A stretch of DNA of 39,355 nucleotides, taken from the sequence record MW074885; one strand, given 5' to 3'. Shown piece by piece: positions 11,315-39,317 of the stretch (its first letter is position 1; the number at the start of each line of letters is the position of its first letter). The position numbers were made by a program, and so were the translations under genes. The DNA is from Escherichia phage JB01. Under the pieces are notes generated by a model, which saw only the letters and a program-made list of their open reading frames with translations, was not told the DNA's origin and did no database searches.

Positions 11315-12925
11315 ATGGCTGAGAAGCGTACAGGTCTAGCCGAGGAAGGCGCAAAGTCGGTCTATGAGCGATTAAAGAACGACCGCGCTCCTTATGAGAC
11401 TCGTGCTCAAAACTGCGCTCAGTACACCATTCCGTCCCTCTTCCCTAAGGACTCCGATAACTCATCCACAGACTACACGACTCCGTGGCAAGCTGTGGGT
11501 GCTCGCGGTCTCAATAACTTGGCCTCTAAGCTCATGCTGGCTCTCTTCCCGATGCAAACGTGGATGAAACTGACCATCTCTGAGTATGAGGCTAAACAGT
11601 TACTGAATGACCCCGATGGACTCGCTAAGGTCGATGAGGGCCTCTCGATGGTAGAGCGTATCATCATGAACTACATTGAGTCTAACAGTTACCGAGTGAC
11701 TCTCTTTGAGGCTCTCAAGCAGTTAGTCGTAGCGGGTAACGTCCTGCTGTACCTACCGGAACCAGAAGGGTCAAACTATAATCCCATGAAGCTGTATCGA
11801 TTGTCTTCTTATGTGGTCCAACGAGACGCATTCGGCAACGTTCTGCAAATGGTGACTCGTGACCAGATAGCTTTTGGCGCTCTCCCTGAGGACATCCGTA
11901 AGGCTGTAGAAGGTCAAGGTGGTGAGAAGAAAGCCGATGAGACCATCGACGTGTACACTCACATCTATCTGGATGAGGACTCAGGCGAATACCTCCGGTA
12001 CGAAGAGGTCGAGGGTATGGAAGTTCAAGGCTCCGATGGGTCTTACCCCAAAGAGGCTTGCCCGTACATCCCGATTCGAATGGTTCGTCTGGATGGTGAA
12101 TCCTACGGTCGTTCGTACATTGAGGAATACTTAGGTGACTTACGGTCCCTTGAGAATCTCCAAGAGGCTATCGTCAAGATGTCCATGATTAGCTCTAAGG
12201 TTATCGGCTTAGTGAATCCTGCTGGCATCACCCAGCCACGCCGACTGACCAAAGCTCAGACTGGTGACTTCGTTACTGGTCGTCCAGAAGACATCTCGTT
12301 CCTCCAACTGGAGAAGCAAGCAGACTTTACTGTAGCTAAAGCCGTAAGTGACGCTATCGAGGCTCGCCTTTCGTTTGCCTTTATGTTGAACTCTGCGGTT
12401 CAGCGCACAGGTGAGCGTGTGACCGCCGAAGAGATTCGGTACGTTGCGTCAGAACTAGAAGATACTTTGGGTGGTGTCTACTCCATCCTTTCTCAAGAAT
12501 TACAATTGCCTCTGGTACGAGTGCTCTTGAAGCAACTACAAGCCACGCAACAGATTCCTGAGTTACCTAAGGAAGCCGTAGAGCCAACTATTAGCACAGG
12601 TCTGGAAGCAATCGGTCGTGGTCAAGACCTTGATAAGCTGGAGCGTTGTGTCGCTGCGTGGGCTGCACTGGCTCCTATGCGTGATGACCCTGACATCAAC
12701 CTTGCGATGATTAAGCTGCGAATTGCTAACGCTATCGGTATTGACACTTCTGGTATTCTACTCACCGAAGAACAGAAGCAACAGAAGATGGCCCAACAGT
12801 CTATGCAAATGGGTATGGATAATGGTGCTGCTGCGCTGGCTCAAGGTATGGCTGCACAAGCTACAGCTTCACCTGAGGCTATGGCTGCTGCCGCTGATTC
12901 CGTAGGTTTACAGCCGGGCATTTAA
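11315..12925 (+). CDS. 8: gp8 portal (head-tail connector) protein
   Basis: 536 aa, same length as the T7 portal. Confidence 0.97.
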   Translation: MAEKRTGLAEEGAKSVYERLKNDRAPYETRAQNCAQYTIPSLFPKDSDNSSTDYTTPWQAVGARGLNNLASKLMLALFPMQTWMKLTISEYEAKQLLNDPDGLAKVDEGLSMVERIIMNYIESNSYRVTLFEALKQLVVAGNVLLYLPEPEGSNYNPMKLYRLSSYVVQRDAFGNVLQMVTRDQIAFGALPEDIRKAVEGQGGEKKADETIDVYTHIYLDEDSGEYLRYEEVEGMEVQGSDGSYPKEACPYIPIRMVRLDGESYGRSYIEEYLGDLRSLENLQEAIVKMSMISSKVIGLVNPAGITQPRRLTKAQTGDFVTGRPEDISFLQLEKQADFTVAKAVSDAIEARLSFAFMLNSAVQRTGERVTAEEIRYVASELEDTLGGVYSILSQELQLPLVRVLLKQLQATQQIPELPKEAVEPTISTGLEAIGRGQDLDKLERCVAAWAALAPMRDDPDINLAMIKLRIANAIGIDTSGILLTEEQKQQKMAQQSMQMGMDNGAAALAQGMAAQATASPEAMAAAADSVGLQPGI

Positions 12926-28799: not shown

Positions 28800-30560
28800 G
28801 TGTCTACTCAAGCCAATCGTAATGCGCTCGTAGTGGCGCAACTGAAAGGAGACTTCGTGGCGTTCCTGTTCGTCTTATGGAAGGCGTTAAACCTTCCGGT
28901 GCCAACTAAGTGTCAGATTGACATGGCTAAGGTGCTGGCGAATGGAGACAACAAGAAGTTCATCCTACAGGCTTTCCGTGGTATCGGTAAGTCGTTCATC
29001 ACATGTGCGTTCGTTGTGTGGTCCTTATGGAGAGACCCTCAGTTGAAGATACTTATCGTATCAGCCTCTAAGGAACGTGCAGACGCTAACTCCATCTTCA
29101 TTAAGAACATCATTGACCTGCTGCCATTCCTCGCTGAGCTAAAGCCAAGACCCGGACAGCGTGACTCTGTAATCAGCTTTGACGTTGGCCCAGCTAAGCC
29201 TGACCACTCTCCTAGTGTGAAATCAGTAGGTATCACTGGTCAGTTAACTGGTAGCCGTGCTGACATTATCATTGCGGATGACGTTGAGATTCCGTCTAAC
29301 AGTGCGACTATGGGTGCCCGTGAGAAGCTATGGACTCTCGTTCAGGAGTTCGCTGCGTTACTTAAACCGCTGCCTTCCTCTCGTGTTATCTACCTTGGAA
29401 CACCTCAGACCGAGATGACTCTCTATAAGGAACTTGAGGATAACCGTGGGTACACCACTATCATCTGGCCCGCTCTGTACCCAAGGACACGCGAAGAGAA
29501 CCTCTATTACTCACAACGTCTTGCTCCTATGTTACGTGCTGAGTACGATGAGAACCCTGAGGCACTCGCTGGGACTCCTACAGACCCAGTGCGCTTTGAC
29601 CGTGATGACCTCCGTGAACGTGAGTTGGAATACGGTAAGGCTGGCTTTACGTTACAGTTCATGCTTAACCCGAACCTGAGTGATGCCGAGAAGTACCCTC
29701 TGAGGCTCCGTGACGCTATCGTAGCGGCCTTAGACTTAGAGAAGGCACCAATGCATTACCAGTGGCTTCCGAACCGTCAGAACATCATTGAGGACCTTCC
29801 TAACGTGGGCCTTAAGGGTGATGACCTGCATACGTATCATGATTGCTCCAACAACTCTGGTCAGTATCAACAGAAGATTCTGGTCATTGACCCTAGTGGT
29901 CGCGGTAAGGACGAAACAGGTTACTCTGTGCTGTACACCCTGAACGGTTACATCTACCTAATGGAAGCTGGAGGTTTCCGTGATGGTTACTCTGATAAGA
30001 CCCTTGAGTTGCTCGCTAAGAAAGCGAAGCAATGGGGAGTCCAGACGGTTGTCTACGAGAGTAACTTCGGTGACGGTATGTTTGGTAAGGTGTTCAGTCC
30101 TATCCTTCTTAAACACCACAATTGCGCTATGGAAGAGATTCGTGCTCGTGGTATGAAGGAGATGCGTATTTGTGATACCCTTGAGCCAGTCATGCAGACT
30201 CACCGCCTTGTCATTCGTGATGAGGTCATTAGGGCAGACTACCAGTCCGCTCGTGATATAGACGGTAAGCATGACGTTAAGTACTCACTGTTCTACCAGA
30301 TGACACGTATCACTCGTGAGAAAGGTGCTCTGGCTCATGATGACCGATTGGATGCCCTTGCGTTAGGCATTGAGTATCTCCGTGAGTCCATGCAGTTGGA
30401 TTCCGTTAAGGTCGAAGGTGAAGTGCTTGCTGACTTCCTTGAGGAGCACATGATGCGTCCTACGGTTGCTGCTACGCATATCATTGAGATGTCTGTAGGA
30501 GGAGTTGATGTGTACTCTGAGGACGATGAGGGTTACGGTACGTCTTTCATTGAGTGGTGA
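28800..30560 (+). CDS. 19: gp19 terminase large subunit
   Basis: 586 aa, GTG start after aaggagg SD; same length as T7 gp19. Confidence 0.97.
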
Positions 30561-30597: not shown

Positions 30598-31041
30598 ATG
30601 ATAAGCAAGAAGAAGTATGTGATTGATAAGGAGACTGGCTGCTGGAACTTTAAGGGATGCAGGACGAAGACTGGATATGGTCGCATTCGTGTAAACGGAG
30701 TCCATTGGATGGCCCACAGGTATTCCCTGAGTTGTCATCTAGGCAGACCGATAGCTGACGGAATGGTTGTGATGCACCTGTGTGATAATCCTTCATGTGT
30801 TAACCCTGAGCACCTTAAGGAAGGGACTCAGAAGGAGAACATAGAAGACTGCATCTCAAAAGGTCGCGCAACTAAGGCCACAGGTAAACGTGATGCGTCT
30901 AAGAGAGACCCTAGCGAGGAACGTAAGGCTATAGTGGTTCGTAGATACCATAAAGGCTGGACTGCAACGTCCATAGCGAGATACCATAAGCTCTCTGTGG
31001 CGTGGGTCAAGAGGGTCATTGAGGAGTACCTAAGTGATTGA
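30598..31041 (+). CDS. HNH homing endonuclease (HNH_3-type) with C-terminal HTH-like tail
   Basis: 147 aa; motifs GCWNFKGC, GYGRIRVNG, AHRYS, HLCDNPSCVNPEHL, EGTQ; between gene 19 and phiOR. Confidence 0.8.
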   Translation: MISKKKYVIDKETGCWNFKGCRTKTGYGRIRVNGVHWMAHRYSLSCHLGRPIADGMVVMHLCDNPSCVNPEHLKEGTQKENIEDCISKGRATKATGKRDASKRDPSEERKAIVVRRYHKGWTATSIARYHKLSVAWVKRVIEEYLSD

Positions 31042-31092
31042 TATTTGAAATTAGTGATACAGGTATAAGTATATGATTACAGACCATTATTC

Positions 31093-31115
31093 TAATTCGA
31101 CTCACTATAGGGAGA
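31093..31115 (+). promoter_or_regulatory. phage RNAP promoter phiOR-like
   Basis: taattcgactcactatagggaga, one mismatch to consensus, upstream of gene 19.5. Confidence 0.75.
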
Positions 31116-31205
31116 AGCCTACCTAAAGATTACTATTAGACTTAAAGTGTCCTATAAGGGTAGGTTGTTATTATATGAATACAACCATCATAAAGGAGGA
31201 GACTC

Positions 31206-31355
31206 ATGTTCCGCTTATTGTTGAACCTGCTGCGGCATAGAGTCACCTACCGCTTTCTTATGGTACTTTGTGCTGCCCTTGGGTACGCATCTCTTAATGG
31301 AGACCTCAGTTCACTGGAGTCTACCGTTTGCTCTATACTCACTTGTAGCGATTAG
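31206..31355 (+). CDS. 19.5: gp19.5 small membrane-type protein
   Basis: 49 aa MFRLLLNLLRHRVTYRFLMVLCAALGYASL... with aaggagga SD; below the ORF-track length cutoff. Confidence 0.8.
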   Translation: MFRLLLNLLRHRVTYRFLMVLCAALGYASLNGDLSSLESTVCSILTCSD

Positions 31356-31596
31356 GGTCTTACTGACAGACTGATGGCTCACCGAGGGATTCAGCGGTAT
31401 GATTGCATCACACCACTTCATCCCTATAGAGTCAAGTCCTAAGGTATACCCCATAAAGAGCCTCTAATGGTCTATCCGTAAGGTCTATACCTAAAGATAG
31501 GCCATCTTATCAGTATCACCTAAAGAGGGTCTTAGAGAGGGCCTAGGGAGTTCCTAGAGGGTCCTTTAAAATATACCATAAAAATCTGAGTGACTA

Positions 31597-31766
31597 TCTC
31601 ACAGTGTACGGACCCAAAGTTCCCCCATAGGGGTACCTAAAGCCCAGCCAATCACCTAAAGTTACCTTTCGGTTGACCTTGAGGGTCCCTAAGGGTTGGG
31701 GTTTACCTTTGAGTGGGACTTTGGGTTTACCTTTGAGTGTTACCTTGAGTGTCTCTATGTGTCCCT
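31597..31766. repeat. direct terminal repeat region (single collapsed copy at the genome-end junction)
   Basis: begins tctcacagtgtacgga and ends gtgtccct, matching the T7 terminal-repeat boundaries as I recall them; contains internal direct repeat gggtttacctttgagtg x2. Confidence 0.5.
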
Positions 31767-31779
31767 ATCTGTTACAGTC

Positions 31780-31842
31780 TCCTAAAGTCACCTCCTAAAG
31801 TCACCTCCTAAAGTCACCTCCTAAAGTCACCTCCTAACGTCC
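31780..31842. repeat. 13-bp tandem array tcctaaagtcacc x4 plus a degenerate fifth copy
   Basis: perfect copies at 31780, 31793, 31806, 31819; part of the cctaaag-rich left-end repeat region. Confidence 0.85.
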
Positions 31843-32020
31843 TTCCTAAAGCCTACACCTAAAGACACCATCAAGTCAATGCCTATCTTAAAGTATAGAC
31901 CTAAAGACCATTCCTAAAGACCAGACCTAAAGACACTACATAAAGACCATACCTAAAGACGCCTTGTTGTTAGCCATAAAGGGATAATCTTCAATCATTG
32001 TCTTTAACCATTGTCTTTAT

Positions 32021-32043
32021 TAATACGACTCACTATAGAGAGA
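32021..32043 (+). promoter_or_regulatory. phage RNAP promoter phiOL-like
   Basis: taatacgactcactatagagaga preceded by the duplicated cattgtcttta motif. Confidence 0.75.
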
Positions 32044-32097
32044 CTACTTAAAGAGTCCTTAAAGATGGATTAATTTAAAGATTTATTAAAAAGAGTA

Positions 32098-32126
32098 TTG
32101 ACTTTAAGTCTAACCTATAGGATACT
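32098..32126 (+). promoter_or_regulatory. host sigma70 early promoter A1
   Basis: -35 TTGACT (32098-32103), 17-nt spacer, -10 GATACT (32121-32126). Confidence 0.8.
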
Positions 32127-32223
32127 TTGAGCCATCGAGAGGGACACGGTGAATAGCCATCCTAATCGACACCGGGTCAAACGGTTAAGTAGACAGCCTG
32201 ATAAGTCGTATGAAAAACAGGTA

Positions 32224-32253
32224 TTGACAACATGAAGTAACATGAAGTAAGAT
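32224..32253 (+). promoter_or_regulatory. host sigma70 early promoter A2
   Basis: -35 TTGACA (32224-32229), 18-nt spacer, -10 TAAGAT (32248-32253). Confidence 0.75.
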
Positions 32254-32334
32254 ACACAACGTAGCGTCAACCACTGACACGGTGTCTTCTAGGTGACTTA
32301 AGCGCACCACGGCACATAAAGTGAAACAAAACGG

Positions 32335-32363
32335 TTGACAACATGAAGTAAACACGGTACGAT
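32335..32363 (+). promoter_or_regulatory. host sigma70 early promoter A3
   Basis: -35 TTGACA (32335-32340), 17-nt spacer, -10 TACGAT (32358-32363). Confidence 0.75.
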
Positions 32364-32469
32364 GTACCACATGAAACGACAGTGAGTCACCACACTGAAA
32401 GGTGATGCGGTCTAACGAAACCTGACCAAAGACGCTCTTTAACAATCTGGTAAATAGCTCTTGAGTGCA

Positions 32470-32520
32470 TAGATAGTGGATAACTCAAGGGTATCGCAAG
32501 GTGCCCTTTATGATATTCAC
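32470..32520 (+). promoter_or_regulatory. RNase III-type processing site, copy 1 (R0.3-like)
   Basis: gataactcaagggtatcgcaaggtgccctttatgatattcac; core at 32483-32508 repeated at 32837-32862. Confidence 0.5.
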
Positions 32521-32545
32521 TTAACTACTAAAGGAATCACACACA

Positions 32546-32830
32546 ATGCGCTTAAGTAAAGAGACAGCAATAGCTATGCGTCAAGCAATCAAATCCAGAG
32601 CAGCTCACAACGTGGGAGGTCTTGGGGATGTTGTACGGACGTATAAAGCTAAAGGTCTAACATTCCGCCGCTTTATGTGGGACTGTTTCCACGCTGTAGG
32701 CTTTAACGAGACAACCCGAATAATCGCTGAGCATAACACGGTGACAGTGATTGGAGGGCATATAACAGATGTGAACGATGCACACATTGAGACAATGCTC
32801 AAGGTTGCACTTAAAGACTTGAAATATTAG
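32546..32830 (+). CDS. hypothetical early protein upstream of ocr (no T7 counterpart)
   Basis: 94-aa ORF, ATG at 32546; first gene after A1-A3; flanked by duplicated processing-site element; no family recognised. Confidence 0.7.
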   Translation: MRLSKETAIAMRQAIKSRAAHNVGGLGDVVRTYKAKGLTFRRFMWDCFHAVGFNETTRIIAEHNTVTVIGGHITDVNDAHIETMLKVALKDLKY

Positions 32831-32876
32831 TGATAAACTCAAGGGTATCGCAAGGTGCCCTTCATGATTATCATTG
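32826..32876 (+). promoter_or_regulatory. RNase III-type processing site, copy 2 (R0.3-like)
   Basis: gtgataaactcaagggtatcgcaaggtgcccttcatgattatcat; near-identical to copy 1. Confidence 0.5.
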
Positions 32877-32903
32877 ATTAACAACACTATGAGGTGACAC
32901 AAG

Positions 32904-33254
32904 ATGGCTATGTCTAACATGACTTACAACAACGTTTTCGACCACGCTTACGAAATGCTGAAAGAAAACATCCGTTATGATGACATCCGCGACACTGATG
33001 ACCTGCATGATGCTATTCACATGGCTGCCGATAATGCAGTTCCGCACTACTACGCTGACATCTTTAGCGTAATGGCAAGCGAGGGCATTGACCTTGAGTT
33101 CGAAGACTCTGGTCTTATGCCGGACACCAAGGACGTAATCCGCATCCTGCAAGCTCGCATCTATGAGCAACTCACGATTGACCTCTGGGAAGACGCTGAG
33201 GACTTACTGAACGAGTACCTTGAGGAAGTCGAGGAAGAGGAAGAGGAATTATAA
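32904..33254 (+). CDS. ocr: gp0.3 Ocr DNA-mimic anti-restriction protein
   Basis: 116 aa [27 protein letters not shown]..., highly acidic with [10 protein letters not shown] tail. Confidence 0.93.
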
Positions 33255-38294: not shown

Positions 38295-39317
38295 ATGATG
38301 AACATTAAGACCAACCCATTTAAAGCCGTGTCTTTCGTAGAGTCTGCCATTAAGAAGGCTCTGGATAACGCTGGGTATCTTATAGCTGACATCAAGTACG
38401 ATGGTGTGCGTGGTAACATCTGCGTAGACAATACTGCTAACAGTTGCTGGCTCTCTCGTGTATCTAAAACGATTCCGGCACTGGAGCACTTAAACGGATT
38501 TGATGTTCGCTGGAAGCGTCTGCTGAGCGATGACCGCTGCTTCTACAAAGATGGCTTTATGCTTGATGGGGAACTCATGGTCAAAGGCGTAGACTTCAAC
38601 ACTGGGTCCGGCCTACTGCGTACCAAATGGACTGACACGAAGAACCAAGAGTTCCACGAAGAGTTGTTCGTTGAGCCAGTCCGTAAGAAAGATAAAGTTC
38701 CCTTTAAGCTGCACACTGGACACCTTCACGTAAAACTGTACGCTATCCTCCCGCTGCACATCGTAGAGTCTGGAGAAGACCATGATGTCATGACGTTGCT
38801 CATGCAGGAACACGTTAAGAACATGCTGCCTCTGCTACAGGAATACTTTCCTGAAATCGAATGGCAAGCGGCTGAATCTTACGAGGTCTACGATATGGTA
38901 GAACTACAGCAACTGTACGAGAAGAAGCGTGAAGAAGGACATGAGGGTCTCATCGTGAAAGACCCGATGTGTATCTACAAGCGCGGTAAGAAGTCCGGCT
39001 GGTGGAAACTTAAGCCAGAGAACGAAGCTGACGGTATCATTCAGGGTATTGTGTGGGGAACCGAAGGTTTAGCAAATGAAGGTAAAGTAATCGGATTTGA
39101 GGTGCTTCTTGAGAGTGGTCGTGTAGTTAACGCCACAAACATCTCTCGCGCCTTAATGGATGAATTTACCAACACAGTTAACATTGAAGGTGAAACCTAC
39201 TACAATGGACACGCTTGTCAGATTGCGTACATGGAGGAAACACCTGATGGCTCCCTGCGGCACCCATCGTTCGTAATGTTCCGTGGCACCGAGGATAATC
39301 CTCAAGAGAAAATGTAA
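38295..39317 (+). CDS. 1.3: gp1.3 ATP-dependent DNA ligase
   Basis: 340 aa; adenylation motif KYDGVRG; T7 ligase-like but about 19 aa shorter near the C-terminal third. Confidence 0.93.
   Translation: MMNIKTNPFKAVSFVESAIKKALDNAGYLIADIKYDGVRGNICVDNTANSCWLSRVSKTIPALEHLNGFDVRWKRLLSDDRCFYKDGFMLDGELMVKGVDFNTGSGLLRTKWTDTKNQEFHEELFVEPVRKKDKVPFKLHTGHLHVKLYAILPLHIVESGEDHDVMTLLMQEHVKNMLPLLQEYFPEIEWQAAESYEVYDMVELQQLYEKKREEGHEGLIVKDPMCIYKRGKKSGWWKLKPENEADGIIQGIVWGTEGLANEGKVIGFEVLLESGRVVNATNISRALMDEFTNTVNIEGETYYNGHACQIAYMEETPDGSLRHPSFVMFRGTEDNPQEKM

Follow-up and report, generated by a model that had tools for sequence, protein, structure and literature searches.

The DNA to the right of the putative terminal repeat of Escherichia phage JB01 (MW074885) holds four perfect tandem copies of a 13-bp unit, and this raises the question whether they represent an unusual expansion that affects the formation of the genome ends or an ordinary allele of an element known from T7. 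All positions given here refer to the window, i.e., the whole stretch of 39,355 nt that was analysed. A sequence-only reading had described the locus as a genome-end junction with a single collapsed terminal repeat and an expanded tandem array, in which copy-number variation could matter for end formation.

The genome and its junction

BLAST searches identified the window as a Teseptimavirus genome, its first 25 kb being 94% identical to phages N30 and UFV01, CQ615, and 13a. T7 was colinear with the window nearly genome-wide at 83–96% identity, in the form of a circular permutation, with T7 position ~7879 corresponding to base 1 of the window and T7 7591 to its end. When the end of the window was joined to its start, the resulting sequence aligned across the join with phage N30. 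Because of the colinearity with T7 and the alignment across the join, the window is best read as a complete or nearly complete unit genome whose start is arbitrary. For phages with direct terminal repeats, assemblers set the first base arbitrarily and collapse the repeat (PMC5557969). The T7-type machinery is encoded, with gene 19 (terminase) present as an ORF of 586 aa (28800–30560) in a gene set colinear with that of T7.

The two ends of the window (39355/1) meet within a T7 promoter, CAATACGACTCACTAAAGGAGACAC. In N30 this position is occupied by a pair of promoters separated by 97 bp, and in T7 by genes 1.4 and 1.5 together with phi1.5 and phi1.6. JB01 may lack this segment; alternatively, the repeated promoter may have caused a collapse or break in the assembly. 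An ORF for an HNH endonuclease (30598–31041, 147 aa; phrog_6254, E = 8e-60) lies between terminase gene 19 and phiOR, at a site occupied by gene 19.4 in 13a and by nothing in T7. An extra ORF of 94 aa (32546–32830), matching phrog_9817 of unknown function, is located between the host promoter A3 and gene 0.3 (ocr, 32904–33254), and a 46-nt R0.3-like segment is duplicated around it (32474–32519 and 32828–32873, 87% identical). Its identification with gene 0.45, found at the same position in 13a, was rejected (BLASTP E = 8.8).

The T7 left-end start motif was indeed present where it had been reported: TCTCACAGTGTACGG occupies 31597–31611 and occurs once in the window even when 2 mismatches are allowed. 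The repeat-end motif GTGTCCCT was found at 31759–31766. In the alignment, T7 nt 1 falls on 31597 and the last nucleotide of T7, 39937, on 31766, and the interpretation of the region as a T7-type concatemer junction held, both repeat borders being aligned with the T7 ends in a genome colinear with T7. The repeat between these borders is homologous to the T7 repeat, starting with TCTCACAG and ending with GTGTCCCT. Self-BLAST of 31597–31766 returned this segment alone, in agreement with the view that the repeat is represented once, as expected because a collapsed or circularised assembly would show one copy. We infer from the alignments that the virion DNA carries the repeat at both ends.

The JB01 repeat, equal in length to the annotated left repeat of 13a (1–170), was 86.0% identical to T7 nt 1–160, with gaps in 14 of the 172 columns, 12 of which belong to a single 12-nt insertion. 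TRF detected a period of 12 (4.1 copies at 31703–31752), and a 24-nt direct repeat (D12) pairs 31696–31719 with 31720–31743. At this internal period-12 repeat, T7 has a gap of 12 columns whichever of its two ends is aligned. An extra internal 12-nt copy is the main cause of the difference in length between the JB01 and T7 repeats (170 vs. 160 bp).

Three further observations concern the repeat and its surroundings. The left 144 nt (31597–31740) folded as ssDNA better than shuffled sequences (−25.1 kcal/mol, z = −2.2, 2/200), by pairing between a C-rich left half (CCCAAAG, CCTAAAG) and a G-rich right half (CTTTGAG, TTTGGG). The terminal repeat is bracketed, at ~95 and 115 nt from its borders, by the two arms of a 22-nt inverted repeat (31481–31502, AGGTCTATACCTAAAGATAGGC; 31881–31902, GCCTATCTTAAAGTATAGACCT) that are 91% complementary; the T7 version, judged from the alignment by eye, is perfect over about 9 nt. 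The 13a record (NC_011045) gives 164 bp for the right terminal repeat (38678–38841) and 170 bp for the left one, probably through an annotation slip.

The repeat is followed by ATCTGTT, the class II pause and termination signal of T7 RNA polymerase. The + strand of the 39.4-kb window contains one copy of this heptamer, at the junction, and the remaining six belong to the − strand. The class II pause heptamer is strictly sequence-specific, and its one natural copy in T7 is that of the concatemer junction. It is preceded in JB01 by T at 31766, which fits the class II rule (preceding A, C, or T); T7 RNA polymerase stops 6–8 nt past ATCTGTT. The records of 13a and Yersinia phage Y carry a CJ annotation at the same position, with a described involvement in DNA packaging. 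This heptamer, absent from the sequence-only reading, is the part of the junction region with the best documented role.

From left to right, the junction comprises phiOR, gene 19.5, the right-end repeat region, the terminal repeat, ATCTGTT, the SRL array, phiOL, and the host promoters A1–A3 at 32098, 32224, and 32335 (Table 1). The order of TR, CJ, A0, phiOL, and SRL is also annotated in 13a, T7.1, and Yersinia phage Y. A direct-repeat family (D13) pairs phiOR with phiOL; phiOR of T7 directs rightward transcription across the junction. The right-end region contains CCTAAAG at 31490 and 31519 and was 96.7% identical to T7 39540–39777, with 2 gap columns.

Table 1. Features of the JB01 junction region, in window coordinates.
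Feature	Position	Strand	Evidence or remark
phiOR-type T7 RNA polymerase promoter TAATTCGACTCACTATAGGGAGA	31093..31115	+	aligned to annotated T7 and 13a phiOR
Gene 19.5 homologue, 49 aa	31206..31355	+	phrog_2193, E = 8.7e-25; 96.0% identical to T7 39389–39539
Right-end short-repeat region (T7 SRR equivalent)	31357..31596	+	CCTAAAG/CCTAAGG-type boxes
Terminal repeat, 170 bp	31597..31766	+	single copy (self-BLAST); aligned to both T7 ends and both 13a ends
Tandem 12-nt units within the terminal repeat	31696..31752	+	TRF, direct repeat D12, alignment gap
ATCTGTT, class II T7 RNA polymerase pause/termination signal (CJ)	31767..31773	+	directly right of the repeat
Four perfect TCCTAAAGTCACC units, proximal SRL	31780..31831	+	exact matches, TRF
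Degenerate proximal units TCCTAACGTCCT, TCCTAAAGCCTACA, CCTAAAGACACC	31832..31870	+	homologous units in T7, 13a, Bas102
A0-like leftward sigma-70 promoter, predicted	31850..31879	−	homologous in position to T7 A0
Distal SRL units, type CCTAAAGACCA / CCTAAAGACAC	31887..31963	+	TRF; − strand has TGGTC/GTGTC primase pentamers
Two and a half inverted units (ATTGTCTTTAACC)	31988..32019	+	TRF period 13, 2.5 copies
phiOL-type T7 RNA polymerase promoter TAATACGACTCACTATAGAGAGA	32021..32043	+	aligned to annotated T7 and 13a phiOL

The 13-bp array and its copy number among relatives

The four perfect tandem copies of TCCTAAAGTCACC reported for the proximal part of the array start at 31780, 31793, 31806, and 31819, with 0 mismatches. 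When up to 2 mismatches were allowed, the unit gave 8 matches in comparison with 1.1 expected, a number reached in 0/100 shuffles. The degenerate copy said to follow was identified as TCCTAACGTCCT at 31832–31843, and the CCTAAAG-type elements do continue to about 31960, ten exact copies being present at 31781–31958, all on the + strand. In the window as a whole, CCTAAAG occurs 20 times (4.9 expected; 0/100 shuffles reach 20), and 15 of the 20 copies lie at 31122–31958, all of them on the + strand. TRF delimited two period-13 arrays, one at 31779–31869 (7.1 copies, score 126) and the other at 31899–31960 (4.8 copies), and the distal SRL is matched in inverted orientation by the units at 31988–32019 (inverted repeats I1 and I3).

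The array at 31780–31960 aligns unit for unit with T7 nt 175–338, annotated as "SRL" in the T7.1 record, with the leftward host promoter A0 lying within it; the heptamers follow one another at a spacing of 12–13 bp. Among 265 units from 26 genomes, the CCTAAAG core was the sole conserved part, the spacers being variable, and G was almost absent from the + strand of the units.

The predicted A0-like promoter consists, on the − strand, of a −35 element TTGACT (31879–31874), an 18-nt spacer, and a −10 element TAGGCT (31855–31850); in T7 A0 the −35 element is at 255–259 and the −10 element at 231–236. The A0-like site was not called in a generic consensus promoter scan. A transcript initiated there would cross the four-copy array leftward. 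The − strand of this array (31788–31835) reads as four copies of AGGAGGTGA, a perfect 9-nt Shine–Dalgarno sequence found 5 times in the window vs. 0.39 expected. A putative A0 transcript would carry the four copies at its 5′ end, with no start codon suitably placed, and the + strand units mimic the 3′ end of 16S rRNA (TCACCTCCT). Three other readings of the array were rejected: as structured DNA or a hairpin (MFE −0.3 and −0.9 kcal/mol, weaker than shuffles), as an RNA family (Rfam gave no match at E ≤ 1 over 30900–33000), and as coding sequence (the sole ORF that enters it is a 41-aa TTG ORF at 31673–31798, and the − strand has no ORF).

The copy number was surveyed by exact-pattern scans of IMG/VR and metagenomes and in 30 individual junction sequences of the T7 group (29 relatives and the window). 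Among these 30 junctions, hand-picked from BLAST hits and pattern scans and hence not a random sample, the TCACC unit was absent from 5, present once in 19, and found in two, three, or four copies in 2 junctions each. Two copies were noted in 13a and LNA7, three in ESh1 and PVN09, and four in the window and vB_EcoP_IME390 (MH779619), whose units are likewise perfect copies of TCCTAAAGTCACC. PHB20 (MN481366) also has four copies: of the first 900 bases of IME390, 888 align with it at 99.9% identity, the array included. Four perfect copies are thus not unique to JB01. Other units reach 3–5 perfect copies in other lineages (13a, C5, PDP351P2, and WW2), 13a and C5 each having CCTAAAGACCATA three times without mismatch, and PDP351P2 and WW2 having period-12 runs of 53 and 57 nt. 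Megablast of the bare array (31774–31837) against the phage collection gave no matches, presumably due to low-complexity masking, and a 115-kb contig recovered in a 17-mer scan proved to be a chance match with no array.

The claim that JB01 has more copies than T7 was correct because T7 has one exact TCCTAAAGTCACC and one TCCTAAAGTATCC. The term "expanded" stood only in part: identical copies are more numerous than in T7, but the net gain is one unit (~13–14 bp), and there is none over several relatives. This follows from the length of the proximal block, measured from the junction to the conserved TATCTTAAAG anchor, which is 117 nt in JB01 and 103 nt in T7. It was 116–118 nt in 13a, Bas102, LNA7, ESh1, and avDM11 and 132 nt in PVN09, so that the lengths fall into classes ~13 nt apart (91, 103–104, 116–118, and 132 nt). 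The four-copy state would mostly reflect homogenisation of unit variants, and what distinguishes the window is the presence of the same variant at four adjacent positions.

The units are perfect and arranged head-to-tail, and their number varies among relatives in whole-unit steps, as in a VNTR. Two contigs of the metagenome assembly ERZ1036441, from a T7-like phage related to JB01 (about 94% identity to the window), have their end or start inside the same TCCTAAAGTCACC array (NODE-724, 12117–12174; NODE-383, 1–59). We infer that this phage has at least 5 copies of TCCTAAAGTCACC or that the population was mixed, because breaking of a k = 55 graph needs a fully periodic 55-mer. A comparable variation is described by Salem and Skurnik 2018 (PMC5923468): among 16 sister T7-like Yersinia phages, the stretch from the left repeat to the first phage promoter holds 11–34 repeats, and the length of the terminal repeat itself changes through repeats of 10 and 12 bp.

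Possible origins and roles of the array

Taken together, the locus is very probably a standard T7-group concatemer junction, seen in a permuted assembly that contains the 170-bp repeat once, with the four units being a tolerated product of slippage or gene conversion. Formation of the T7 ends has been treated by Dunn and Studier 1983, Chung and Hinkle 1990, Lyakhov et al. 1997, and Zhang and Studier 2004. If JB01 behaves as T7 does, replicated genomes would join via the repeat into concatemers with one repeat per junction, and T7 RNA polymerase starting from phiOR would pause just past ATCTGTT and help to recruit the terminase. The terminase (gp18/gp19) would then cut at both repeat borders and repair synthesis would duplicate the repeat, giving virion DNA with its left end at 31597 and its right end at 31766. 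The four identical TCCTAAAGTCACC units would have come from recent slippage, unequal exchange, or gene conversion between 13-bp units, in an array that seems to tolerate gain, loss, and homogenisation of such units. The range of states in viable isolates argues for this tolerance. The functional consequence of the four-unit state is most likely none or slight.

The two repeat regions that flank the terminal repeat differed in conservation, the SRL being 85.9% identical to its T7 counterpart with 16 gap columns vs. 96.7% and 2 gap columns for the right-end region. Since the right-end region is far better conserved, the comparison suggests that the stricter signals are located to the left of the terminal repeat. 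The CCTAAAG elements had been called implicated in concatemer processing and packaging; the literature, searched for experiments on the function of SRL/SRR or CCTAAAG, yielded no usable support for this. The role is said to be a proposal from the original T7 sequence paper.

The T7 primase recognises 5′-(G/T)2GTC-3′, and an A/T-rich 3′ flank favours binding (PMC12839067). In the window, the pentamers GGGTC, TGGTC, and GTGTC switch template strand at the junction: they are on the + strand at 31468, 31527, and 31559 (all three in the right-end region) and at 31683, 31749, and 31759, and on the − strand at 31864, 31906, 31919, 31932, and 31945. The distal array might mainly provide the leftward fork with clustered sites for lagging-strand priming, which would fix the last Okazaki start and leave the repeat single-stranded for concatemer formation, the proximal block being a spacer. 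The five − strand pentamers within 100 bp (31864–31945) form the densest − strand cluster of the genome (background 0.41 per 100 bp), and the strand switch recurred in 18 T7-group genomes, with 126 + and 21 − pentamers in the left 400 nt and 2 + and 71 − in the right 200 nt. These counts, however, are not independent because the genomes share ancestry and the sites form part of the repeat units. Moreover, many units lack a canonical site, all four TCACC copies included, the literature gave no in vivo priming data, and the proposal is silent on the four-copy block. Overall, we regard such a priming function as unlikely.

A second possibility is that the CCTAAAG array binds a protein, e.g., the small terminase gp18 at packaging termination, and that the number and homogeneity of the units tune end formation. 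T7 packaging runs from the right end to the left end. Such binding would suit the preserved heptamer core with variable spacers, the single orientation of the elements, their concentration at the genome ends, and the variation of the block length in 13-nt steps. By arithmetic, the four units span 52 bp, i.e., about five helical turns, and the array starts where the polymerase is expected to pause, 6–8 nt past ATCTGTT; a recent review calls the mechanism of T7-type end generation poorly understood. Against it, the literature searches gave no binding or deletion data, the unit number differs widely among viable isolates, and the right-end region is far better conserved than the SRL. A protein-binding array is distinctly improbable.

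The identity of the four units and their place between the pause site and A0 would also fit a selected change, and the length classes of the proximal block might reflect a spacing constraint rather than neutrality. Pushed further, this leads to a functional polar module made up of the flanking arrays, in which a CCTAAAG ruler, the polarity of the primase sites, and a selected four-unit variant would together alter end formation or early events. The ruler would measure 13-bp steps between the polymerase pause site and A0/phiOL, the flip of the primase sites would set the last Okazaki starts and so leave the repeat single-stranded for concatemers, and homogenisation would in addition put four perfect copies of AGGAGGTGA at the 5′ end of the A0 transcript. 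We give this composite proposal very little credence.

It is very unlikely that the assembler produced the four copies artificially, by collapse or mis-expansion of the tandem repeat: the ERZ1036441 assembly broke two contigs inside such an array, so the repeat can defeat short k-mers, and the join of the window ends in a repeated promoter indicates that repeats shaped the JB01 assembly, but the periodic run of 59 nt is shorter than ordinary reads and resolvable at k = 55 (being shorter than k + 13), independent isolates have 3 or 4 copies, and both flanks are intact and homologous to relatives.

The array in JB01 is hence a known kind of element and an ordinary new allele, real but unremarkable, which adds one more variant to a repeat region already known to vary. 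The practical consequences concern the record itself. Positions 31597 (left) and 31766 (right) are the probable physical ends of the JB01 genome, and the deposited sequence should be re-oriented and completed with a second copy of the 170-bp repeat on the right, for a total of about 39,525 bp. The array beside the repeat can break or distort short-read assemblies. Natural variants in unit number could serve to test the importance of the SRL, since the generation of T7-type ends is incompletely understood; the JB01 finding itself does not open this question.

Comparison with T7, 13a, IME390/PHB20, and Yersinia phages

The JB01 junction resembles that of T7 (V01146/NC_001604; T7.1, DQ100054) in the end motifs, the order of the elements, the heptamer, and the orientation of the heptamer, the T7 elements being the terminal repeat (nt 1–160), the CJ class II pause site, and the SRL (nt 175–338). 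The junction regions are 86–87% identical. The repeat has 170 bp in JB01 and 160 bp in T7, and JB01 has four TCACC units in place of one TATCC and one TCACC unit of T7, whereas one GCCAACA unit of T7 is absent from JB01, which leaves the net gain of one unit. Between the −35 and −10 elements of A0, JB01 has 18 nt and T7 has 17 nt.

Phage 13a (NC_011045) shares with JB01 the 170-bp repeat with the same 12-nt insertion and the six proximal units before the CATCAAGTCAA anchor, and the distance from the junction to phiOL is nearly the same (252 vs. 254 nt). The composition of the blocks differs. The proximal block of 13a consists of two TATCC, two TCACC, and one TCACA unit, in contrast to four TCACC units in JB01, and its distal block has three perfect CCTAAAGACCATA units, whereas that of JB01 has mixed units.

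IME390 and PHB20 are like JB01 in having four perfect tandem TCCTAAAGTCACC units directly after ATCTGTT. The lead-in is not that of JB01 (ATCTGTTCACC vs. ATCTGTTACAGTC), and the units that follow and the distal block are different too. Because the first 900 bases of IME390 have 89–93% matches in other relatives, the four-copy states of JB01 and of IME390/PHB20 probably had separate origins or were transferred by recombination.

The Yersinia fPS podoviruses (PMC5923468) offer the same picture in phages 90–97% identical to one another, with the number of short repeats varying at the same position. They belong to another phage lineage, and the likeness to JB01 concerns the position and the varying number of the repeats.
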